Shown in pieces: positions 9,446-20,940 of a stretch of 36,589 bases of DNA. Origin of the DNA: Promethearchaeota archaeon. GTDB lineage: Archaea > Asgardarchaeota > Lokiarchaeia > Sigyniarchaeales > SOKP01. A program made the translations under genes and the position numbers. The stretch is taken from assembly GCA_016839585.1 (NCBI GenBank), contig JAEOTZ010000053.1, forward strand, positions 1 through 36,589, written 5' to 3'. Each line of letters starts with the position of its first letter. Within the stretch, counting starts at the first letter, position 1. The notes beneath the pieces are model-generated. The model had not been told where the DNA came from. It saw only the letters and a program-made list of their open reading frames with translations, and made no database searches.

Positions 9446-12400
9446 TCAAATCACATTAAATTCTATTAAAATGCTAAATATCGCAGGTATTCCCACGAGA
9501 AAAATAGCTGTTAGAATTATAATAAGGGTATAAAATCTCCATTTGACTGATATATTGTCTTTTCTTTCTTTATAAATAACATAAGGCAATAAAATTGCTC
9601 CCATAATCCAAATGGATATCCATAAAGTAAAAATATACCAATTAGGAGTAATGAACAGAAATAATATTGCGATAACTGTTATCCAAGAGGTAATTAGTTT
9701 TCTCATTCTATGTTTGAAAATCAAATCAACATCTTCTGTTTTTTTAGATGGTAAAAATAAAGAAAGTAGACCAAAAAGTCCAAGTATAACAAAAACAGAA
9801 TGATACCAATTTAAATAATTAAGTTGCAATGGAGATAAAAGAATACCACTTGAAACTGCAAGAAATAAACTAAATGAGACCCAGATGATTTTGTAATGTA
9901 ATTTTAAAAAATTGAAAATCTTGATTCCAATATCTTTGATAAATTTTTTTAATCGACTAAAAAAATGTATTAAAAGGTCTAAAAGTTTATTAAAAAAGGC
10001 CTTTAAGACTTCAAGCATAAAGATAAAGAGATAAACGGTAAGCATAATAGGTAAAAGAACAATACTTGATAATGTTTGAGAGGTCGCAAAATAAATTATC
10101 AAACTTATTAATAAAGAGATAAGACCTCCATAAGCAAAGGAAAAGTTATGAGATCTCTTATGAGGTTTAATTAATCCAATATTAAATATTGAAAAAGTTA
10201 AAAGGGAAATAGAGATATTTAGTGGGAGAGAAAGATTAAAGGAGAGATGTAACCAACTAAAAATATCAATAATTAGTATTATTAGAATTATGAAGGAAGT
10301 AGCAAATCTAAGTTTTTTTAAGAATTTCTCTTTAAAAATGTGAGATATTTTTTCGTCAATATAAGAAATTATTACTAAAACATAAAAGGAAATTAGGAAT
10401 AGAGTAATATTAAGAATTACATTGAATCCTAAGAAAAATAAAGGCCAAATTATAAAATCAAAATACAATACAGTAAGCAATCTTTTTCTAATTTTATCTT
10501 TTTTTGAGCTCAGTTTCGGCAAAAATTCAAACAATTTAATTAAATAGATAAGTTCTATGATAATTAGTAAAATTAAAGGTGGAATAGAAGAAATCAAAAT
10601 ATCAGATAAATAGGAAACATAGATCCATATTAAATAGAAATTTGAAAAGAATATAAATAAAAGCCAAGAAACTGCTTTAAGATATATTGAAAGTTTTCCT
10701 AAAAGCTTTAATTGATAAGCATCAAGAATCATTAATCCGTGGAGAAAAAGACTTGTTATAAGAATAAGTAAAGAAATTTCAACTCCGATTATAAGAAGAG
10801 ATTGAATTAGAATTGATAGGACAGAAACGTATAATAATATCCCTAAAGAATGAAGTGTTTTAAGTTTATGGCGTTTAAAGGTTTCTGCTTTATTAGGATA
10901 AAAGTGGGATAAAGAAAGAAAAAGTGAATGATTTGTATAAAATTGCATAATTAAAAAGATTAAGATTTCTATACTAATTAGAAGGGGATTAAATTTTACA
11001 TACTGGTTTAAGATTAGAAGAGTTGTTAAGGAGAGTATAAAATAACTAATCGTATGAACTAGTCTTCCATAACTTTCTCTTATTTTTTTTAGAAAATAGA
11101 TATCAAATGAAGTTAAAATAAATAAAGTTAATTGAGACATAAAAAGACTTTCAAAAAATCCTAAAAATTCAATTGCAAGTCCATAGACCATTAAACTTGT
11201 TTCAAGATATAGTAAAAAGATAATTAAAGAATTAGATTTCGTTAGAAAGTTAGGAAAATTTTCTTTTTTAACTAAACCATCAATTAACTTGACTGTAATA
11301 AATGATAAGCAGGTTTCAATTAGAATGATAGAATAAACCGTGAAAAGATTTAAAATATTGAATACTAAAAACAGAACAACCCAATTTGCGGCAAAAATTA
11401 TTTGAAAAAGAGTTATTAATAGAAGTTTTATACTGATTTTTATCTTTTCTTTAGCTTTTCTAATGAAATAACTAAAAATAAATAGAAATAATATTGAATT
11501 TTGAATGAATAATAGAAGAGAGGGTATTCCACGCACTTCTTCAAGAATTAATACTATTCCGTTAGATATTAGAGAAGAAATGTAAAATGAAACCCATATA
11601 AATGAATTATAGATTAGTATTAAGTGTATTATTGAAACTAAATTTTCGTTTTTAATATTAAAATATGAAATGAAGTAAGAATCAATTAAATTTACCAGAG
11701 AGAATGATAATATTAAAATAAATTCATCTAAATGGAAGAAATAAAGGAAAATGCAAGAGAAATTACCGAATATCACCCATGACCAAAACATTAACTTATT
11801 CCGAGTAGCAACGAATAAGTAATAAAAATATCGATTATCAAAAATAAATAATTCAGTAAATAAAACTCCACTTAAGATTATTAAGAATAAATAAATAGAA
11901 TTTGTTAAAGTAACATCTAATTTAAGCAATAATAACAAAAGATTAAAAGCTGTTGCCAATGGGACAATTAAATATATGATATAACTTATTTTATGAATAT
12001 AAATTAATAGATTTTTAACTTTTAATTCAAGTTCTGATTTTATAATATATTTTATACTAAATAATAGAAGAAAGGGTAGAATGATTAGAATATTAAGAAT
12101 CTGATAAATTAATAGTAAATCTCTGAATAATACTTTTTTATATATATTTACACTAATAACTGATATGAGTATTGAAAAATAAAGTGAATTTATTATAAAG
12201 CAGATTAGGTTTTGTAATTTAATTTGATTCTTATCTTTGAAAAAATACGATAAAGTATTCTCTCCTTTTATTTTAGCTTCTTCATAGTGAGAATTTGAAA
12301 TATTCATTACTAGTTGGTATATTATTAAATAATCAATCAAAAATATTAAAATTGCTAAAAAGAGGGAAGATTGAATAAAATCAATTATTAAGAATAATTC

Positions 12401-15400
12401 CTGAAAGAGAAATGTCAACGGTAAGGGAAACAAATACCATATATATAATCTATAATTGCCTAATGGATAGTAAACAAATAACAGAGAAATCATTACAAAA
12501 ATAGCAGCTATAAAAAATGGATTTTCTGGCAGAAATATGGCCAGAAAGGAAGAAACAGCGGAGGAAATACCAAATGATACCGCTGAAAAGGGAATTATTT
12601 TATGGATATGTATTTTCATTTTATAGTAATTAAAAACATAAAAAGAACCACCCCATACAGCAATTGCTAGAAATATAGCAAAAAATAATAGATTAGGGAA
12701 CAAATTAAATGAATTAAAAGTTAACCATGAAATACCAAATATTAGAATCCAAGAAGATATTATGTCTGTTAATCGTTTAATTGGTTTAATATATTTAGAA
12801 GAAAATAGACTAAATCCAACAAATATAAAAGTTATATTTAAAGCAAAAATTGGATCTAAGATTATATGATACAATATAAAATAAATTGTTAGAAAAACCC
12901 CAATTATCGCTGTTATGTAAGAACCAATGATAATGAGATTTTTTATTGATTTAAAAGCAGGAAAAAATGATAAAATTAAAACCAACATGGCAATGGCGAA
13001 AATATCAATTGAAATCACAATGTCTAAAGGGATTTCTAATGATAATAGAAAGAAAATTAAAAAATTTGCATTAATTGCTATAAGGATTAGCCATACGAAC
13101 GAGATTGTTTTCCAAAATTTCAATTTATAGAACAGGGGCGCTAATAAAACGGCTGCAAAAAGTGCAAATACCAAATATCTTAACAAGAAATTAGTCAGAA
13201 ATAGATTTTGACTAATCCAAAAAAGTAAAGCTAGGTTTATGCCCCAAATAATGAGTAAAATTTGATAGAAATATACCTTAATTTTAGTATATGCAATAGG
13301 TAAGAAAAATAGAAAAAATATCACAGTAGTGAGAAGAAATGATCCATTTATTTCATATCCAAAAAAATCTATTGCACTTGTAGCTATATCGACACCTTTA
13401 AGACTTCTATATAATAGATAAAAATTAGCAAAAGGTACAATAAACCAAGCATACCAACCTGTCCTCCAAATTGCCCAAGAAATTTTCCACTGATATAATC
13501 CAATAGATAAATAGAAAAGAAAAATTCCAACATCAATAGCTATAATTAATGGAAATGGATCTCCAAATGGTATGGAAAGAGACACACTAATAAAGAAATA
13601 TAAGAAAATAGGAAAGCTGATAACAATACATGGTAAAACTATAAAGAAAGAAATTCTTCTTAATGGTAATCGTGATTTATAAAATAATAAAACATAAGCT
13701 AATCCAGTAAGACTTAATGTTAATGTCGTTGTAAGAACGAAATTAACTTCTCCATGAATAGGATTATTAAAAAGCCATGAATACGATATAAAACTTAAAA
13801 TGTCAGTAATAAATAGAATTACAGTGAATCTTTTGATAAAGAATCGATATTCTTCAGAAACTAACTCAAATTTCTCGAAATAGGAAAAAGTAATAGGGGA
13901 TAATAGTGAAACAATTAGAATGAAAGTAATTATTAGATTAAAAACTGAAAACTGAACTAATGATAAAAAGTAGGTAAGAATAAAGGATATAAAAAAGCAG
14001 ATAGTAACTTTAGCAATTAGCCACGATACAAATTCAATATTCCTCTGTACGTTAGGAAATTCGAGTTTTATTAAAGCATTGCTAAACTTAAATGATATAA
14101 ATGCTATCAGGAAAAAGAAACCAAGATACCAAAACACATTAAAAAGATGCATTTCTGTTGGTAAATATTTTAAAACTTCGCTAAATTGAATTAAAGAAAA
14201 AATCACTAATGATGGAGAAAAAATTAGACCATAATATAAAATATCTTTTAGATATCTTAGAAAAGTTAATTCCTTTGAATAAAGTTGAAGTAATTTTAAA
14301 GTATAAATATTTATAATAAAGAAAGTTAAAATAGCACAATTTATTATTAAAAGCCTTATTGTAAGAAGAGATTGTGTTAAACCTAATAGTATAATCTCAA
14401 ATGATATAAAAAAGGAGAAGATTAACCAAACGAAGATCTGAAGAAATCTTAAAGTTTTAATGTAGGGTTCTTTTATTTTAAAATTTTCAGCTATTGATTC
14501 AAAGATCTTTAAAATGATAAATAAAATAAAGATGGTAATAATTAAGATTAGAATATAATCAACACTTAAACCCATTTGTTCTATTTGTAAACCCATTAGA
14601 GTTGGAACGCATAATATTATTCCGGATAATATTATACTGTTATAAATTAAGCTTTTTTTCCCTATAGATTCTGTTAGAACTCCTTTTCTATACGCATAAA
14701 TACTAGGTATGAAGAAGTATATGGATGCTAGCATTAATGGTAATAAAAATCTAAATAGTGTTTCATAGAAAATTATAAAGAAGTAAAAGAATACTGTTGT
14801 TCCAGTTAAAAGAAAAGCTATTAAAACTGCTAATATTGAAACAATTCTCCTAAGATTTCCTCTTATTTTGACGTTTATAATGATTAAAATTCCAAAGAGA
14901 GTATAAAGAGTAAAATTAATATCAGTAATAACTGTGATAGTATCGACAGTTAGTCCTAAACTGATTAATTCTAAATAAATGAATGTTGGAATACATAATA
15001 TCAATCCAGATAATAAGAAAGTGTTATAGGTTAAGATTTTCTTCCCAATAGACTCTTTCAAAATTCTTTTTCTATAAGAGTAAGTAGTAGGGATGAAGAA
15101 GTAAGAGGATGCTATTATTAAAGGGAATAAAAATCTAAATAGAGTCTCATAGAAAATTATAAAGAAGTAAAAAAATACTGTTGTTCCAGTTAAAAGAAAA
15201 GCAATTAAAACTGCAAGTATTGAAAGAATTCTTTTAAGATTTTCTCTTATTTTAATCCTGTAAATAAGAAGAATTCCAAATAGAATATAAAGAGTGAAAT
15301 TGATAACATTAAATACTGTGATAATATTAACTCGATATTCTAGATTAATTAATTCTAAATAAATGAATGTTGGAATGAGAGTTAGAAATACAGATAAAAT

Positions 15401-17683
15401 TATACCATTATATACTAATGCTGTTCTTGTTAATTTTGGCGCCTTATCTTTCTTCAATGAATACATTATTGGTAGATATAAATATGAGCACGTAATTATT
15501 ACGGGAAATGTAAATAGATAAAAGGTTCCTAAATTCAAAGATAGCAAACATAAATAGTAAAATAAATAAATTGAGCTGAGAAACAGGGTTATTATATTAA
15601 CATTAATAGATGTAGCTTTTGTAAATAGGATTTCAAATGCAGAAATGCCATTTATTAGAACACATGTAATAATTAAGGTAAGAAATGACGAAAGAATTAT
15701 ATTGTCGATTAAAAGTAGAAATTGAAAGGAAGCATAAAATATAGAGAAAATTAAAGCCAAAAGTAACAAAAATATTGGATAAGATAAAACACTCATAGCC
15801 TTTTTATAGGTTTCTTCTTTTACTTTTGCTATTTTTACCCCAAATTTCAAATTGAAATTAATAAGAATTAATAAAAGTAGGAAATTGAAAATCATCATAA
15901 TATAGTCTGGGAAGAATGTAATGAGTATAGATAGAAAAATAATTACTATTAATGACCAAAAAGAATAATAAATTGATGCTAAAAGCGTCTTTAAGTTAAT
16001 CATGCCAATTAAATAATTCAATGATACGAAAAGCATGAATATTAACGGAAATAAGATAGTAGAAATGGTTAAAAGCTTAATGAAAAGGTTAAAACTCACT
16101 GTGAAGTAGGTATTCAAATTGATGAGAATAAAGATAATTAATTCTATCAGAAATAAATTCATTAGTACGCATATTTTGAATGTATTTGAGTATTTTTCTT
16201 TGAAGAAAATTGCATATAATCTGTAAAATGAAAGTAATAAAACAACAAAGAAAACAATTAGAATTATAAAAATGTTAGAAACAAATGTTAGATAAGGATC
16301 TGTAGTAATATAAACATAGTTAAGAATGATCAAGAAAAAAGCAATTATTGCAAGAATATTTTGAGTTATTAGGATATTTCCTTTTTTAAAATAATCAACC
16401 CTTCTAAATAATTCTAACATGAAATAAAAGGAAATGGAAAAAACAATCAATTGAATATTGAAATTAATAAGATCTGAAATAGAAGGTAAGATTCCAAAAG
16501 AGATAGAAGCTAAACACGCAAGAGAATATAATAAAATAATAAAATTATTGTATTTTTTAAAGGAGTAATTTGATTTATGCTCATAATGAGTAAAAATAAA
16601 AAAAAATGGAAGAATAATTAGTGTAATGTAAGGTAACTCTATAAGAAAAGTGTATAATGTTATTAATAAGATTAAAATTCCTGTTAATATCGAACTTAAT
16701 TTTTGATATTTGACTTTTGTATCTTTATTTTCTTCTTTAGGATTTTTTGATGTTTCGGGGTTCGTGTATAACTCAAATAAAAATTCATAGTATAAGTAGA
16801 TATAAAGTACAGTTTTAAGAAAGAGTAAGACGAATAAAAAACTTAGAAACGCATCATCTATAAGAATACTAATTGAAAATTGACCTCTCTGAATAAAAAA
16901 TACCAATGATATGAAAGGCATTTGAATCAAAAGAACAAACATAAAGCTAGCTATAGATATAACAAATTTACGCTTAAATTTTGTTAGATTTTTTAAGAAT
17001 GGCTTGTTTTCGGCTATATTTTTTTTGATTTCATTCTGTTGATTACTTACAGACGCTAAAGTAATCAAATAAAAAATTACATTATTGATAAGCCCAAAAA
17101 GCCATGCAAAATCAGTTGAAGTTATAAAAGATAGATATAAAATTTGAATAAAGTAATTAATGACAATAACAATATTATAGGGTTGTTTTAACATCAATTT
17201 TAAACTAATAGCATGCTTAAACTCTCCTTCTCCTATATTGAAAAAATCGATAGGTTGAAAGTAGTAGTAATAATACACAATATTATATAAAAGAGAAAAA
17301 GAAATCAACGGAAGATAAATAAACGACCAATTTTCGGGCGTAATAAGAACGAAAATTGGGGTTACAACATAAGATAATATAGATATTAGATAAATGACGT
17401 GTACTCTGGCAATTGGGTTATTGGATTTATTATAAAAGAAAGGGTTATTTCGATATTTGTCAAAACTTTTATAAAAGAAGAGGAAAGCAAATGTAAAAAT
17501 TATGACAGAAATAGTAAACGCGATATATGAAGCCCAAGGAAACTGTACCAAGATCCAGAATCCAGCTAAAGAAATAGCGAAGGGGGCAATTATTAGGAAA
17601 AAGCAAAATCTAAATAATTTTGTAAGGAATTCAGTTACTTTCTTAATTTTTTCTTCAGAGTTGTTAGATTCTTTAGATTTCAT
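9446..17683 (-). CDS. Giant polytopic membrane protein, 2745 aa, unknown function
   Basis: Uninterrupted 8.2-kb ORF in AT-rich DNA. About 85 hydrophobic segments counted by eye, separated by alternately short and Lys/Arg-rich loops; no recognisable soluble domain. Confidence 0.9.
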   Translation of the reverse strand: MKSKESNNSEEKIKKVTEFLTKLFRFCFFLIIAPFAISLAGFWILVQFPWASYIAFTISVIIFTFAFLFFYKSFDKYRNNPFFYNKSNNPIARVHVIYLISILSYVVTPIFVLITPENWSFIYLPLISFSLLYNIVYYYYYFQPIDFFNIGEGEFKHAISLKLMLKQPYNIVIVINYFIQILYLSFITSTDFAWLFGLINNVIFYLITLASVSNQQNEIKKNIAENKPFLKNLTKFKRKFVISIASFMFVLLIQMPFISLVFFIQRGQFSISILIDDAFLSFLFVLLFLKTVLYIYLYYEFLFELYTNPETSKNPKEENKDTKVKYQKLSSILTGILILLITLYTFLIELPYITLIILPFFFIFTHYEHKSNYSFKKYNNFIILLYSLACLASISFGILPSISDLINFNIQLIVFSISFYFMLELFRRVDYFKKGNILITQNILAIIAFFLIILNYVYITTDPYLTFVSNIFIILIVFFVVLLLSFYRLYAIFFKEKYSNTFKICVLMNLFLIELIIFILINLNTYFTVSFNLFIKLLTISTILFPLIFMLFVSLNYLIGMINLKTLLASIYYSFWSLIVIIFLSILITFFPDYIMMIFNFLLLLILINFNLKFGVKIAKVKEETYKKAMSVLSYPIFLLLLALIFSIFYASFQFLLLIDNIILSSFLTLIITCVLINGISAFEILFTKATSINVNIITLFLSSIYLFYYLCLLSLNLGTFYLFTFPVIITCSYLYLPIMYSLKKDKAPKLTRTALVYNGIILSVFLTLIPTFIYLELINLEYRVNIITVFNVINFTLYILFGILLIYRIKIRENLKRILSILAVLIAFLLTGTTVFFYFFIIFYETLFRFLFPLIIASSYFFIPTTYSYRKRILKESIGKKILTYNTFLLSGLILCIPTFIYLELISLGLTVDTITVITDINFTLYTLFGILIIINVKIRGNLRRIVSILAVLIAFLLTGTTVFFYFFIIFYETLFRFLLPLMLASIYFFIPSIYAYRKGVLTESIGKKSLIYNSIILSGIILCVPTLMGLQIEQMGLSVDYILILIITIFILFIILKIFESIAENFKIKEPYIKTLRFLQIFVWLIFSFFISFEIILLGLTQSLLTIRLLIINCAILTFFIINIYTLKLLQLYSKELTFLRYLKDILYYGLIFSPSLVIFSLIQFSEVLKYLPTEMHLFNVFWYLGFFFLIAFISFKFSNALIKLEFPNVQRNIEFVSWLIAKVTICFFISFILTYFLSLVQFSVFNLIITFILIVSLLSPITFSYFEKFELVSEEYRFFIKRFTVILFITDILSFISYSWLFNNPIHGEVNFVLTTTLTLSLTGLAYVLLFYKSRLPLRRISFFIVLPCIVISFPIFLYFFISVSLSIPFGDPFPLIIAIDVGIFLFYLSIGLYQWKISWAIWRTGWYAWFIVPFANFYLLYRSLKGVDIATSAIDFFGYEINGSFLLTTVIFFLFFLPIAYTKIKVYFYQILLIIWGINLALLFWISQNLFLTNFLLRYLVFALFAAVLLAPLFYKLKFWKTISFVWLILIAINANFLIFFLLSLEIPLDIVISIDIFAIAMLVLILSFFPAFKSIKNLIIIGSYITAIIGVFLTIYFILYHIILDPIFALNITFIFVGFSLFSSKYIKPIKRLTDIISSWILIFGISWLTFNSFNLFPNLLFFAIFLAIAVWGGSFYVFNYYKMKIHIHKIIPFSAVSFGISSAVSSFLAIFLPENPFFIAAIFVMISLLFVYYPLGNYRLYIWYLFPLPLTFLFQELFLIIDFIQSSLFLAILIFLIDYLIIYQLVMNISNSHYEEAKIKGENTLSYFFKDKNQIKLQNLICFIINSLYFSILISVISVNIYKKVLFRDLLLIYQILNILIILPFLLLFSIKYIIKSELELKVKNLLIYIHKISYIIYLIVPLATAFNLLLLLLKLDVTLTNSIYLFLIILSGVLFTELFIFDNRYFYYLFVATRNKLMFWSWVIFGNFSCIFLYFFHLDEFILILSFSLVNLIDSYFISYFNIKNENLVSIIHLILIYNSFIWVSFYISSLISNGIVLILEEVRGIPSLLLFIQNSILFLFIFSYFIRKAKEKIKISIKLLLITLFQIIFAANWVVLFLVFNILNLFTVYSIILIETCLSFITVKLIDGLVKKENFPNFLTKSNSLIIFLLYLETSLMVYGLAIEFLGFFESLFMSQLTLFILTSFDIYFLKKIRESYGRLVHTISYFILSLTTLLILNQYVKFNPLLISIEILIFLIMQFYTNHSLFLSLSHFYPNKAETFKRHKLKTLHSLGILLYVSVLSILIQSLLIIGVEISLLILITSLFLHGLMILDAYQLKLLGKLSIYLKAVSWLLFIFFSNFYLIWIYVSYLSDILISSIPPLILLIIIELIYLIKLFEFLPKLSSKKDKIRKRLLTVLYFDFIIWPLFFLGFNVILNITLFLISFYVLVIISYIDEKISHIFKEKFLKKLRFATSFIILIILIIDIFSWLHLSFNLSLPLNISISLLTFSIFNIGLIKPHKRSHNFSFAYGGLISLLISLIIYFATSQTLSSIVLLPIMLTVYLFIFMLEVLKAFFNKLLDLLIHFFSRLKKFIKDIGIKIFNFLKLHYKIIWVSFSLFLAVSSGILLSPLQLNYLNWYHSVFVILGLFGLLSLFLPSKKTEDVDLIFKHRMRKLITSWITVIAILFLFITPNWYIFTLWISIWIMGAILLPYVIYKERKDNISVKWRFYTLIIILTAIFLVGIPAIFSILIEFNVI
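14600..15490 (-). repeat. Intragenic tandem repeat, period 384 bp (128 aa), ~2.3 copies
   Basis: TCCAGTTAAAAGAAAAGC at 14801 and 15185; GTTGGAA at 14601/14985/15369. The peptide SILAVLIAFLLTGTTVFFYFFIIFYETLFRFL occurs twice identically. Boundaries approximate. Confidence 0.9.
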
Positions 17684-17789: not shown

Positions 17790-19112
17790 TTATCTAAATT
17801 TTGGTAGATATTTCTTTTGCAAATCGCTCATCTCGTTAAAAATGTCTTCTGCCATTTCAAAACTCCCAACATTCGGATCAATAGCTAAGCAAGCTAATGC
17901 AAATTCTTTAGATCTTTTTAATGCAGCTTCTACACATAAATCTTGAATAGAAGCTTCAATACGAAGCAACGCAGCGATATTTTTTGGTAGTTCGCCTATT
18001 TTTACACCATGAACACCTTGTTTATTAACTTTAGCTGAAATTTCAAGGACTAAATCTTCTGGTAGATTATTTATCAATCCGTCATTTGGGAGATTTACAG
18101 CACTTTCATAGGAATTCTTATCTGTTATTATTGCTTCAATAATAGGTATAGCTCTTTCTCCAGAGGGTTCTTTAAAAAGAGGTCCAATCTTTGGTCGTTT
18201 TCCTTTTTTCAATCGTTTATAATAATGAGCGATAAGTCCATATATACTTTGATTAAATTGATCTGTATGATTAATCCAATCAATCATATCTTGAGTTTTG
18301 GTAAATTCTTCACCAAATTGAAGATATTCCCCTAAATGGTTATCTCCAACATAGGGAAAATAACCGAATCTATTATAAATCTCAAAGGTTAAAGTTGAAA
18401 ATTCAAATCTGTTTTCATTTTTCTTAAAATAATTCATGGCTTTAACATTAAAATCAAGCATTAAATCTTTTCCAGCAGCTAAATCTTCTAATCCTAATAA
18501 AAAGGCAAAGTGGTTAAGCCCTGCGACTGTCATTTTTAATTCTTCCAGCTTTTTATTAAACATTATCGGTAAATGATGATTTAGAAATCCAATTTGATGA
18601 CATAAACCGATAAATTTTAAATTTTTTGTTGCTCTTTTAATTGCTAAACATACTCTAGACATAGGATTTGAAAAGTTAATAAAAAAAGCATTTGGGCATA
18701 GTTTTTCTATATCTTTTATAATTTCAATAATTGGTGGGATAATCCTCCAAGCATGAAAGTTGCCACCCGGACCTCCACATTCTCCTAAAATCTGAGTAGA
18801 ACCATGCTTTCTGGGGATCTCATAATCCTGCCACCATAATGAAAATCTATCACCGACTTCAATCGAATTAATTATGAAATCAGCATCCTCAAAAGCTTCA
18901 GCTCTATTAGTAGTCCATTGGATATTAAATTTATTTCCTAATCTTTCATTTTCGAAAGTTAATAGCTCATAAACAATTTTCAATTTTTCTTTATTTATAT
19001 CATGAAGTACAATCGTAGAACCTACCAGAACAGTACTTAAATATAAATCACTAAACGTTGATGGACCAAATGAAGTTGATCCTGCTCCAACAAGTACAAT
19101 CTTTTTTTCCAT
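17790..19112 (-). CDS. Glycoside hydrolase family 4 (NAD+/Mn2+-dependent alpha-galactosidase/alpha-glucosidase)
   Basis: KIVLVGAGSTSF Rossmann motif, DYEIPRKHG..Q..GECGGPGG, FINFSNP, IGLCH, AGLNHF, GDNHLGEY. Confidence 0.9.
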   Translation of the reverse strand: MEKKIVLVGAGSTSFGPSTFSDLYLSTVLVGSTIVLHDINKEKLKIVYELLTFENERLGNKFNIQWTTNRAEAFEDADFIINSIEVGDRFSLWWQDYEIPRKHGSTQILGECGGPGGNFHAWRIIPPIIEIIKDIEKLCPNAFFINFSNPMSRVCLAIKRATKNLKFIGLCHQIGFLNHHLPIMFNKKLEELKMTVAGLNHFAFLLGLEDLAAGKDLMLDFNVKAMNYFKKNENRFEFSTLTFEIYNRFGYFPYVGDNHLGEYLQFGEEFTKTQDMIDWINHTDQFNQSIYGLIAHYYKRLKKGKRPKIGPLFKEPSGERAIPIIEAIITDKNSYESAVNLPNDGLINNLPEDLVLEISAKVNKQGVHGVKIGELPKNIAALLRIEASIQDLCVEAALKRSKEFALACLAIDPNVGSFEMAEDIFNEMSDLQKKYLPKFR

Positions 19113-19272
19113 AATTTTGAAGGGTTATTTTTTCAATATTTCCTTAAAATATTAACATAATTAAAGAGTTTTCAAATTTTTTAGAATTAATAATTAAGGT
19201 ATCATTGAAATCAATACTACTTTTTTGTATAATTCACGATATTGGAGAGAAATGGGAAATAAATGGGTAAAG

Positions 19273-19280
19273 TTTATAAA
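19273..19280 (+). promoter_or_regulatory. Archaeal TATA box for the structured RNA/small-ORF transcript
   Basis: TTTATAAA preceded by purine-rich GGGTAAAG (BRE-like); predicts a start site near 19303-19307, exactly where the paired region begins. Confidence 0.6.
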
Positions 19281-19303
19281 GGATTTTTCTCACAATTCTA
19301 ATA

Positions 19304-19540
19304 ATGAGCTTTTCAAATAATACTACGACATATTGGTGTAGATTACATTTAGGTGTAATAGCTGTATTCATCCGTAGTATTATTAAGAGAGAATAAATCA
19401 AATCTCTTGACCTGTTTCTTATATTTTTTATTGGTTTATTCTCTCAACATATAATAACTATGTAAAATTTATTCGAAAAAGGTCAAGCCTGATTTCATTC
19501 TCCTAGTGAAAGCTAAATCAAAAAAAAAAGGAGGTGAAAA
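19304..19540 (+). ncRNA. Candidate structured RNA / riboswitch-like 5' leader (no known family recognised)
   Basis: Stems 19316-19327/19373-19384 (12 bp perfect) and 19387-19401/19431-19445 (15 bp, one U-G); pseudoknot 19406-19418/19475-19487 (12 of 13); hairpin 19493-19499/19505-19511 with anti-SD loop CUCCU; alternative 5'-3' pairing 19307-19315/19507-19514. G-U pairs favour the + strand. Confidence 0.7.
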
Positions 19541-19733
19541 ATGGTTGGGAAATAAGTTAAACAAAAATGATCCTTATATGATACTTGACTACTATAAAGA
19601 TTGGGATTCTGATAAAGCTCCAGTCATGATGGTTTTAAATAACTTGGATGATAATCCTGGGCAAATAGAATCTGAAGATGAGAAAAAACTAGCTTATCTT
19701 TGGAACAAGTACAAATATCAAAAATCTAAATAA
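19541..19733 (+). CDS. Small hypothetical protein; RBS-led ATG frame stops after 4 codons, body continues in +1 frame
   Basis: AGGAGGTGA-AAA-ATG GTT GGG AAA TAA; the +1 frame reads (G)NKLNKNDPYMILDYYKDWDSDKAPVMMVLNNLDDNPGQIESEDEKKLAYLWNKYKYQKSK*. Alternative starts: GTG 19506 (track) or ATG 19578. Confidence 0.55.
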
Positions 19734-19734
19734 A

Positions 19735-19760
19735 TTTTTTTTTATTTACTTATTTTTTTT
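19735..19760 (+). terminator. Oligo-T terminator after the small ORF
   Basis: T9 and T8 runs directly after TAA 19733, between convergent genes. Confidence 0.5.
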
Positions 19761-20940
19761 AGTTAAGGACTTTATCTATCCTTTCTAATGCTTCTTTAAT
19801 TCTTTCTATTGGCTGTGTTAAAGCAAATCTAACAAAACCTTCTCCATATTGACCAAAACCAATCCCTGGAGTTATAATTACCCCTACATTGATCAATTTT
19901 TTAACAAAATCCATGCTATTTGTTTCTCCCTCAGGAATTTGAATCCATACATAAAAAGTTGCTTTTGGTTTATCTGTTTCCCAACCAATCTTATTTAATC
20001 CTTCAACCAGTACATCACGTCTTTTTTCATAAATTTTCATGTTTTTATCCACGATTTCTGGTTTTTTTTCTGATTTATATTCATTTAATCCTTTTATTAC
20101 TGCTTTTTGTATAAAAATTGGACACCCTGAATCAATTTGAGATTTTATTTTTCTTAATCCTTCAATAATTTCTTGATTACCCACTGCCCATCCACATCTA
20201 AATCCTGTCATATTAAATGTTTTTGATGCACTATTAATTTCAATATGATCAGGATTAATTTGCAATAGAGTAGGGGCTATATAGTCGCCAAAAGTGAATT
20301 CAGAATAAGGATTATCGTATATAATAATAAAATTATAATCTTCAGCATAATCTACAGCTTTTTTCAGATATTCTATAGGTGCTATGGCTCCAGTAGGATT
20401 ATTTGGATAATTTAAATACATCATTTTTGCTTTTTTTAGAATTTTAGTCTCTATTAATTCTAAATTTGGAAGAAATTTATTCTCTCTTGTTAATGGCATT
20501 AAATAAGGTTTTCCATCACATAGTTTTGTTGCTCCATTTGCATAAACAGGATATCCTGGATTAGGACATAACACAATATCTCCTGGATTGATAAATGCTC
20601 TTGCAATATTAGCAACTCCTTCCTTTCCTCCTAATACATTAGTAACCTCTCTATCAGCATTAAAATCTAACCCAAATCTTACCTTATACCATCTAACAAT
20701 CCCTTCTCTGAAAATCTCTTCTCCCATACTAGCAGGATAATTTTGATTTTCAGGAATTTTTACCTGATTGATCAACTCATTTATAATTAATTCCGGAGTC
20801 GTCAGATCGGGATCTCCTATTCCCAACGAAATGAAATCTATTCCTTCTTTCTTTTTCTTAGCTTTTAATTCTTCAATTGCCACGAAAATATATTTTGGTA
20901 ATCTGTTTACTCTTTCAGCATATTCTATTTTCATCTTCAA
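19759..20940 (-). CDS. dapL: PLP-dependent class I/II aminotransferase, LL-diaminopimelate aminotransferase-like
   Basis: ISLGIGDPD, GGKEG, PGYPVY, YLNYPNNPTGA, DNPYSEF, SASKTFNMTGFRCG (PLP lysine), PGIGFGQYGEGFVRFAL. Substrate is inferred. Confidence 0.75.
   Translation of the reverse strand: MKMKIEYAERVNRLPKYIFVAIEELKAKKKKEGIDFISLGIGDPDLTTPELIINELINQVKIPENQNYPASMGEEIFREGIVRWYKVRFGLDFNADREVTNVLGGKEGVANIARAFINPGDIVLCPNPGYPVYANGATKLCDGKPYLMPLTRENKFLPNLELIETKILKKAKMMYLNYPNNPTGAIAPIEYLKKAVDYAEDYNFIIIYDNPYSEFTFGDYIAPTLLQINPDHIEINSASKTFNMTGFRCGWAVGNQEIIEGLRKIKSQIDSGCPIFIQKAVIKGLNEYKSEKKPEIVDKNMKIYEKRRDVLVEGLNKIGWETDKPKATFYVWIQIPEGETNSMDFVKKLINVGVIITPGIGFGQYGEGFVRFALTQPIERIKEALERIDKVLN

Follow-up and report, generated by a model that had tools for sequence, protein, structure and literature searches.

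Does the RNA ahead of a small open reading frame (ORF) in this Asgard archaeon act as a regulatory leader, and could a pyrimidine tract within it control access to the Shine-Dalgarno (SD) sequence of that ORF? The question concerns the intergenic region at positions 19113–19758 of the window, by which we mean the whole stretch of 36,589 nucleotides that was analysed. This region contains one small plus-strand ORF, flanked by a family-4 glycoside hydrolase (GH4) gene and a class I/II aminotransferase gene (Table 1), and the order of the three genes is retained in relatives. The GH4 gene itself adjoins a giant ORF of 2745 aa (9446–17683), for which no Pfam hit is on record; this synteny is held in two relatives (L075 and L076), where the giant ORF is 2853–3026 aa long.

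Table 1. Coordinates of the features at the locus, given as window positions.
Feature	Position	Strand	Remarks
GH4 gene	17790–19112	minus	5′ flank of the region
Probable archaeal promoter	19252–19280	plus	Two ATGGG repeats, purine-rich BRE-like stretch, TATA-like box
Expected transcription start	19300–19306	plus	Predicted only, ~22–26 nt past the TATA-like box
P1, 5′ strand	19307–19315	plus	Pairs with 19507–19514
P2 long hairpin	19316–19384	plus	12-bp base (19316–19327 with 19373–19384), variable tip
H3 helix	19387–19401 with 19431–19445	plus	Sequence near-invariant
H4 helix	19407–19418 with 19475–19486	plus	Crosses H3, giving a pseudoknot
Distal pyrimidine tract	19491–19504	plus	Copy of the H3 3′ arm; its 3′ end (19500–19504) is the anti-SD candidate
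Local hairpin	19493–19511	plus	Present in the window, not conserved in the family
P1, 3′ strand	19507–19514	plus	Directly 3′ of the anti-SD tract; SD-like sequence
A-rich linker	19515–19528	plus	Region includes A10 at 19520–19529
SD sequence	19529–19537	plus	Core invariant in 65 homologues
62-aa orphan protein gene	19545–19733	plus	TTG start; followed by T-tracts at 19735–19743 and 19753–19760
Class I/II aminotransferase gene	19759–20940	minus	3′ flank of the region

A conserved leader RNA and its probable promoter

Our comparison covered 65 distinct homologous leaders drawn from genomes and metagenomes, and the related loci belong to Promethearchaeota (Asgard) archaea. Among genomes of the same genus, the non-coding segment 19247–19540 retains 67–75% nucleotide identity in approximately 21 of 24. 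The preliminary description of this DNA had confined the RNA to 19307–19543; the conserved block in fact starts at about 19250, and we read its first ~50 nt as promoter. Positions 19252–19280 are invariant or almost so in the 65 homologues, and the next ~20 nt are variable. The invariant segment contains two ATGGG repeats (19252–19258 and 19263–19267, 11 bp apart) and a TATA-like box (19273–19280), for which two spellings alternate among homologues. By analogy with the known layout of archaeal promoters, this segment is probably the promoter of the small ORF. Transcription would then probably begin near 19300, where we found a conserved UAAUGA motif (19300–19306) common to the small-ORF leaders and to a second group of leaders, located upstream of leuS, which is described below. 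The invariant ATGGG pair immediately upstream of the TATA-like box resembles a transcription-factor site, and in three homologues (L032–L034) the second repeat is inverted, with CCC replacing GGG. RNAalifold proposed a pairing of these upstream GGG repeats with the pyrimidine tract, which we rejected because the repeats lie against a TATA-like box that is universally conserved and are more readily interpreted as promoter elements.

The leader is ~235 nt long and contains two helices, P1 and P2, together with a pseudoknot formed by H3 and H4. It had been proposed that the 5′ end of the transcript (19307–15) can capture 19507–14, and this pairing proved to be the conserved helix P1. In the window P1 has 8 bp with one bulged U; over the alignment of all 65 leaders (A3, columns 12–23 with 234–246) it is 83% paired, three of its pairs are changed on both sides, and in two homologues (L054 and L058) both strands have been replaced jointly. 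P2 is a single long hairpin in nearly all the homologues displayed, with a median z-score of -5.2 and values below -2 in 65 of 65, and its sequence differs by clade. H3 is 94.5% paired and shows compensatory C-G pairs in L032 and L033, as well as one A-U to C-G replacement between the paralogous leaders. For H4, 6 of the 11 pairs are changed on both sides within the small-ORF leaders. Taken together, P1, H3 and H4 are 88.8% paired in the 65-leader alignment, against 40–60% when the strands are slid out of register, and contain 66 double-change cells against 24 in shuffled alignments, none of the 500 shuffles reaching the observed value. On this comparative evidence, the RNA around the anti-SD tract is clearly under structural selection.

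A search of Rfam gave no gathering-score match anywhere in the window, and preQ1-I, SAM-II, preQ1-II and T-box models were absent from 19050–19800 at E ≤ 10. The leader is neither the signal recognition particle (SRP) RNA nor the RNase P RNA, because both are encoded on other contigs. To judge from the alignments, this Asgard 5′ leader represents a new RNA, conserved and pseudoknotted, and the best explanation of the site studied here is that it forms the translation-initiation end of a conserved cis-acting RNA.

Two further features of the leader deserve mention. The middle of the pseudoknot contains U-tracts (19415–19429, including U6 at 19424–19429) that are conserved in both paralogues; as oligo-U is the archaeal termination signal, early termination at this position is conceivable. 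In addition, one homologue (L028) is a mosaic whose 5′ half, with promoter and P2, resembles L019 and L025, and whose 3′ half and ORF share ~95% identity with the window, a pattern that suggests recombination inside the leader.

Initiation signals and the orphan microprotein

The SD sequence of the small ORF is an 8-nt complement of the 3′ end of 16S rRNA, which was taken from a genome of the same genus; no 16S rRNA gene was found in this assembly. A comparable SD precedes only 277 genes of this genome, and SD sequences have been reported not to be prevalent in a Lokiarchaeon (PMC7531240). At fixed spacing after the SD, the codon is CUG in 33, UUG in 18, ACG in 12 and AUG in 2 of the 65 homologues, so that a near-cognate start is conserved in nearly all leaders. 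This result places the start at the TTG at 19545 and not at the ATG at 19541. The ATG opens a frame of only four codons that is out of frame with the small ORF and is not conserved. We also considered the ATG as start, or a +1 frameshift within 19541–19733, and rejected both, since the ATG is lost in L022 and L029 and the in-frame UUG, CUG or ACG is conserved; a frameshift is not needed. In most homologues, the TGA within the SD forms a stop codon in frame.

A conserved near-cognate start behind a normal ribosome-binding signal recalls the autoregulation of infC, which encodes initiation factor IF3, and by this analogy suggests control at start-codon selection. The Asgard product, at 60 aa, is instead an orphan protein unrelated to initiation factors in its annotation. 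In the clade that uses CUG (for example L002, L004 and L007), a hairpin of 7 bp with a 7-nt loop lies 12–13 nt past the start codon; the two variants observed in it are G-U compatible, and it uses the rare leucine codon CUG. This early-codon hairpin is absent from the clade of the window.

The microprotein belongs to a family of 356 members, and its relatives are annotated as hypothetical proteins of Lokiarchaeota or Promethearchaeota. It was detected in 47 of 68 genomes of one taxonomic family and in none of the 233 other genomes of the phylum. We found no Pfam domain in it, a search for longer or fused forms returned none, and a protein atlas search with the microprotein gave no usable match. 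Its AlphaFold model is of low confidence (pLDDT 67).

Predicted pairing of the pyrimidine tract with the Shine-Dalgarno sequence

The pairings that the preliminary description had read from the window are present in it. Positions 19493–19499 form with 19505–19511 a local hairpin of 7 bp, including one G-U, whose 5-nt loop (19500–19504) is the exact complement of 19529–19533; the A10 run lies further downstream. The proposed longer pairing across the whole ribosome-binding site was found as well: the tract (19493–19504) forms 11 bp with 19529–19539, with one bulged U, at a duplex energy of -11.2 kcal/mol (RNAduplex), a value matched by 1.8% of the 277 SD-led genes of the genome and by none of 200 shuffles. 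When the whole leader is folded, the SD is 99% paired to the tract and the minimum free energy structure uses the tract:SD helix (z = -3.5). The predicted probability that the SD is unpaired is 0.01–0.06 in the window and in 7 of 9 close relatives, and 0.70 in L025. Three mutually exclusive pairings exist in the window, with the anti-SD helix as the predicted ground state. As in SD-sequestering leaders in general, the anti-SD is predicted to occlude the SD in the window's clade, and there is a competing structure, since P1 is conserved, covaries and excludes the tract:SD pairing in nested folds. The earlier proposal of mutually exclusive folds that gate initiation is partly supported by these predictions for the window. 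Across the family, the median predicted accessibility of the SD is 0.5 and the predicted partners differ between homologues.

Conservation of the anti-SD across the 65 leaders, which had been named as a check, was found in part. In 54 of 65 leaders, a core of five pyrimidines is located 22–23 nt upstream of the SD; the linker is 9–10 nt long in 54 of 65, with 72% A, 22% U and 6% G+C. Pairing of the five-base core with the SD is possible in 93.8% of cells, against 63–81% in slid registers; shuffled alignments reach the same value, the SD being invariant. Because the SD core never varies, covariation cannot test this pairing, and in homologues whose SD lacks its first G, the tract shows no compensating change. 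The long anti-SD pairing is confined to the clade of the window; elsewhere 5 bp are left, G-U pairs included. The local hairpin, likewise limited to this clade, did not hold up as a conserved element, being 65.7% paired against 54–59% in slid registers, with no covariation. In this respect the leader departs from FourU and ROSE thermometers, which it resembles in the weak pairing of a U-rich or pyrimidine-rich strand to the SD via A-U and G-U; those thermometers are short local hairpins, whereas the Asgard tract is part of a large covarying fold.

Could the complementarity simply be incidental, the result of a pyrimidine-rich leader lying beside a purine-rich SD in a genome of 29% G+C, with constitutive translation? 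Over the family, the tract:SD duplex has a median energy of -6.3 kcal/mol, compared with a mean of -5.1 kcal/mol for the genome background; the two distributions overlap, and only about a third of the homologues beat their own shuffles. The SD also has many alternative partners: five or more other conserved pyrimidine tracts are able to pair with it equally well, as is the 5′ strand of P1, which is 93.4% pairable with the 3′ half of the SD and the spacer (43–68% in slid registers). These observations, and the lack of conservation of the local hairpin, speak for an accidental match. However, the duplex of the window is in the top 2% of its genome, 65 divergent leaders agree in where the tract lies, how far it is from the SD and its pyrimidine character, and the surrounding RNA is under evident structural selection. 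We thus regard a purely incidental origin as very unlikely.

The relation between P1 and the anti-SD helix bears on how the leader might work. The duplex energy of P1 is -7.2 kcal/mol in the clade of the window against a family mean of -11 kcal/mol, so that the weakest P1 coincides with the longest anti-SD helix. When either P1 or the SD-occluded state was forced, the median difference between the two was 0.6 kcal/mol (standard deviation, 7 kcal/mol), with 43% of leaders within 3 kcal/mol, as calculated by nearest-neighbour folding, which ignores the pseudoknot. A family-wide SD switch is unproven.

One way of reconciling the two helices is that P1 and the tract:SD helix coexist as an H-type pseudoknot, with the linker in the groove of P1, and that the folded leader is the OFF state, as in SAM-II and preQ1-II. 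The topology of preQ1-I and SAM-II riboswitches had been invoked from the outset, and the leader shares with SAM-II (RF00521), preQ1-II (RF01054) and preQ1-I (RF00522) a pyrimidine strand beside its closing helix that is able to reach the SD over an A-rich linker and pair with it, in which case translation would follow folding. The strands follow each other in the required order (P1 5′ strand, tract, P1 3′ strand, SD), the gap between the tract and the P1 3′ strand is only 1–2 nt, the linker is constant in length and rich in A, and P1 is also strong in those homologues whose tract is a perfect SD complement. Membership in these riboswitch families is a different matter: the Asgard leader is archaeal, ~235 nt long and has a separate H3/H4 core, no Rfam pseudoknot riboswitch model matches it even at E = 10, and its SD pairing is strong in some clades only. 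Moreover, the first stem of a compact H-type pseudoknot would here be 12 bp, which a 9–10 nt linker is short for spanning, and in the window's clade it is the weak P1 that accompanies the long anti-SD helix. We consider coexistence of the two helices unlikely.

We favour instead an alternative fold that occludes the SD in the clade of the window. The tract ends in CC, lies at a fixed distance from a strong SD and in this clade covers the SD fully, which makes SD occlusion the best single explanation, although we put its chances at slightly below even. In the proposed mechanism, P1 would close the RNA around P2 and the H3/H4 pseudoknot, leaving the pyrimidine tract directly 5′ of the P1 3′ strand and followed, at a fixed distance, by the A-rich linker and an SD that is very strong. 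For the clade of the window, we propose that the tract has been extended to cover the whole SD; this helix would be the predicted resting state, blocking binding of the 30S subunit to a gene whose UUG start is already weak. P1, or pairing of the tract with the H3 5′ arm whose partner it mimics, would compete with the tract:SD helix in a nested fold, so that whatever stabilises the folded core would set translation. Against SD occlusion speaks the clade-specific distribution of the long pairing, which could be inherited by descent.

A sister leader upstream of leuS

We built a covariance model of the leader core and used it to search the genomes of the family. This revealed, in many of them, a second locus with the same core upstream of archaeal-type leuS, the identity of which was established by a score of 940 bits on TIGR00395. 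Of 135 family genomes, 94 have a conserved leuS leader (examples from relatives are L093–L097, L099–L102 and L108–L137). Its layout repeats that of the small-ORF leader, with a TATA-like box of its own, the 5′ motif, P2, and the helices H3 and H4, in which compensatory changes occur. When both paralogues are considered together, 90.6% of the core is paired, compared with 37–61% in slid registers; none of 500 shuffles reached the observed value, and 8 of the 11 pairs of H4 are changed on both sides. The genome of the window has a bacterial-type leuS (contig C25, L103) that lacks the leader, and the assembled 99% of this genome yielded no archaeal-type copy. By eye, a local hairpin after H4 in the leuS leaders was inconsistent across sequences, and we discarded it.

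The leuS leaders keep a modified form of the pyrimidine tract without a conserved SD at the matching place. From its presence there, the tract is an ancestral core element of this two-member leader family, as far as sequence comparison can tell. This finding fits another explanation of the tract, namely that it is chiefly a structural part of the core, as a junction strand or as an alternative or third-strand partner of the purine-rich H3 5′ arm, and that complementarity to the likewise purine-rich SD is a by-product. Control would then be exerted sterically by a bound factor (LeuRS, tRNA-Leu or the microprotein) or through early termination at the U-tracts of the core. In every clade the tract is a near-copy of the H3 3′ arm, and its pairing with the H3 5′ arm is possible in 82% of cells (34–64% in slid registers). 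H3 is near-invariant while H4 covaries freely, which fits a strand with more than one partner; many pyrimidine tracts of this AU-rich RNA can pair with the SD; and both paralogues have conserved U5–U6 tracts in the core. On the other hand, the terminal CC of the tract in the small-ORF leaders, which corresponds to U in the H3 arm, favours the GG of the SD over the A residues of H3, and six homologues carry a perfect five-base complement of the SD that is mismatched to H3. Nor would a purely structural tract account for the constant distance between tract and SD, or for the longer pairing in the clade of the window. We consider this explanation possible but rather unlikely, and likewise the steric or termination-based control that would go with it.

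The presence of one core ahead of two different genes is typical of regulatory RNA, and the sister leader points to an effector, since it precedes leuS: judging from gene context alone, the leader would most likely respond to leucine charging, through LeuRS, tRNA-Leu or leucine. Known leader RNAs of aminoacyl-tRNA synthetase genes include T-box leaders (RF00230) and the Escherichia coli thrS operator. The Asgard family resembles them in having a long structured leader upstream of a synthetase gene, with a related copy on a second gene; it is the leuS paralogue that has this location, the window copy preceding an orphan gene. It differs from them in its archaeal hosts and in the leuS copy, which has neither a conserved SD nor a terminator hairpin, and neither leader matches the T-box model; an Rfam search with one leuS leader returned nothing, T-box included. 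Candidate specifier and UGGN-bulge motifs were not conserved across clades or paralogues in alignments inspected by eye only, and a T-box-like specifier in P2 of the leuS leaders, which we also considered, looks like a helix extension.

The locus combines an invariant 8-nt SD, a near-cognate start, a covarying pseudoknotted leader, a candidate anti-SD tract and a sister leader upstream of leuS. As a tentative and bolder proposal, which is less likely to be true than false, the leader may represent the founding member of an Asgard-specific class of riboregulators that senses leucine charging, via LeuRS, tRNA-Leu or leucine, and controls both leuS and a non-AUG microprotein, with the anti-SD tract as the translational output in the small-ORF copy. 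To our knowledge, few cis-regulatory RNAs are known in Archaea; none from Asgard archaea is described in Rfam 15 or in the literature that we searched, and in Archaea we know of no earlier structured leader of an aminoacyl-tRNA synthetase gene. If the proposal is true, the Asgard leader would be the first synthetase-linked structured leader in this domain.
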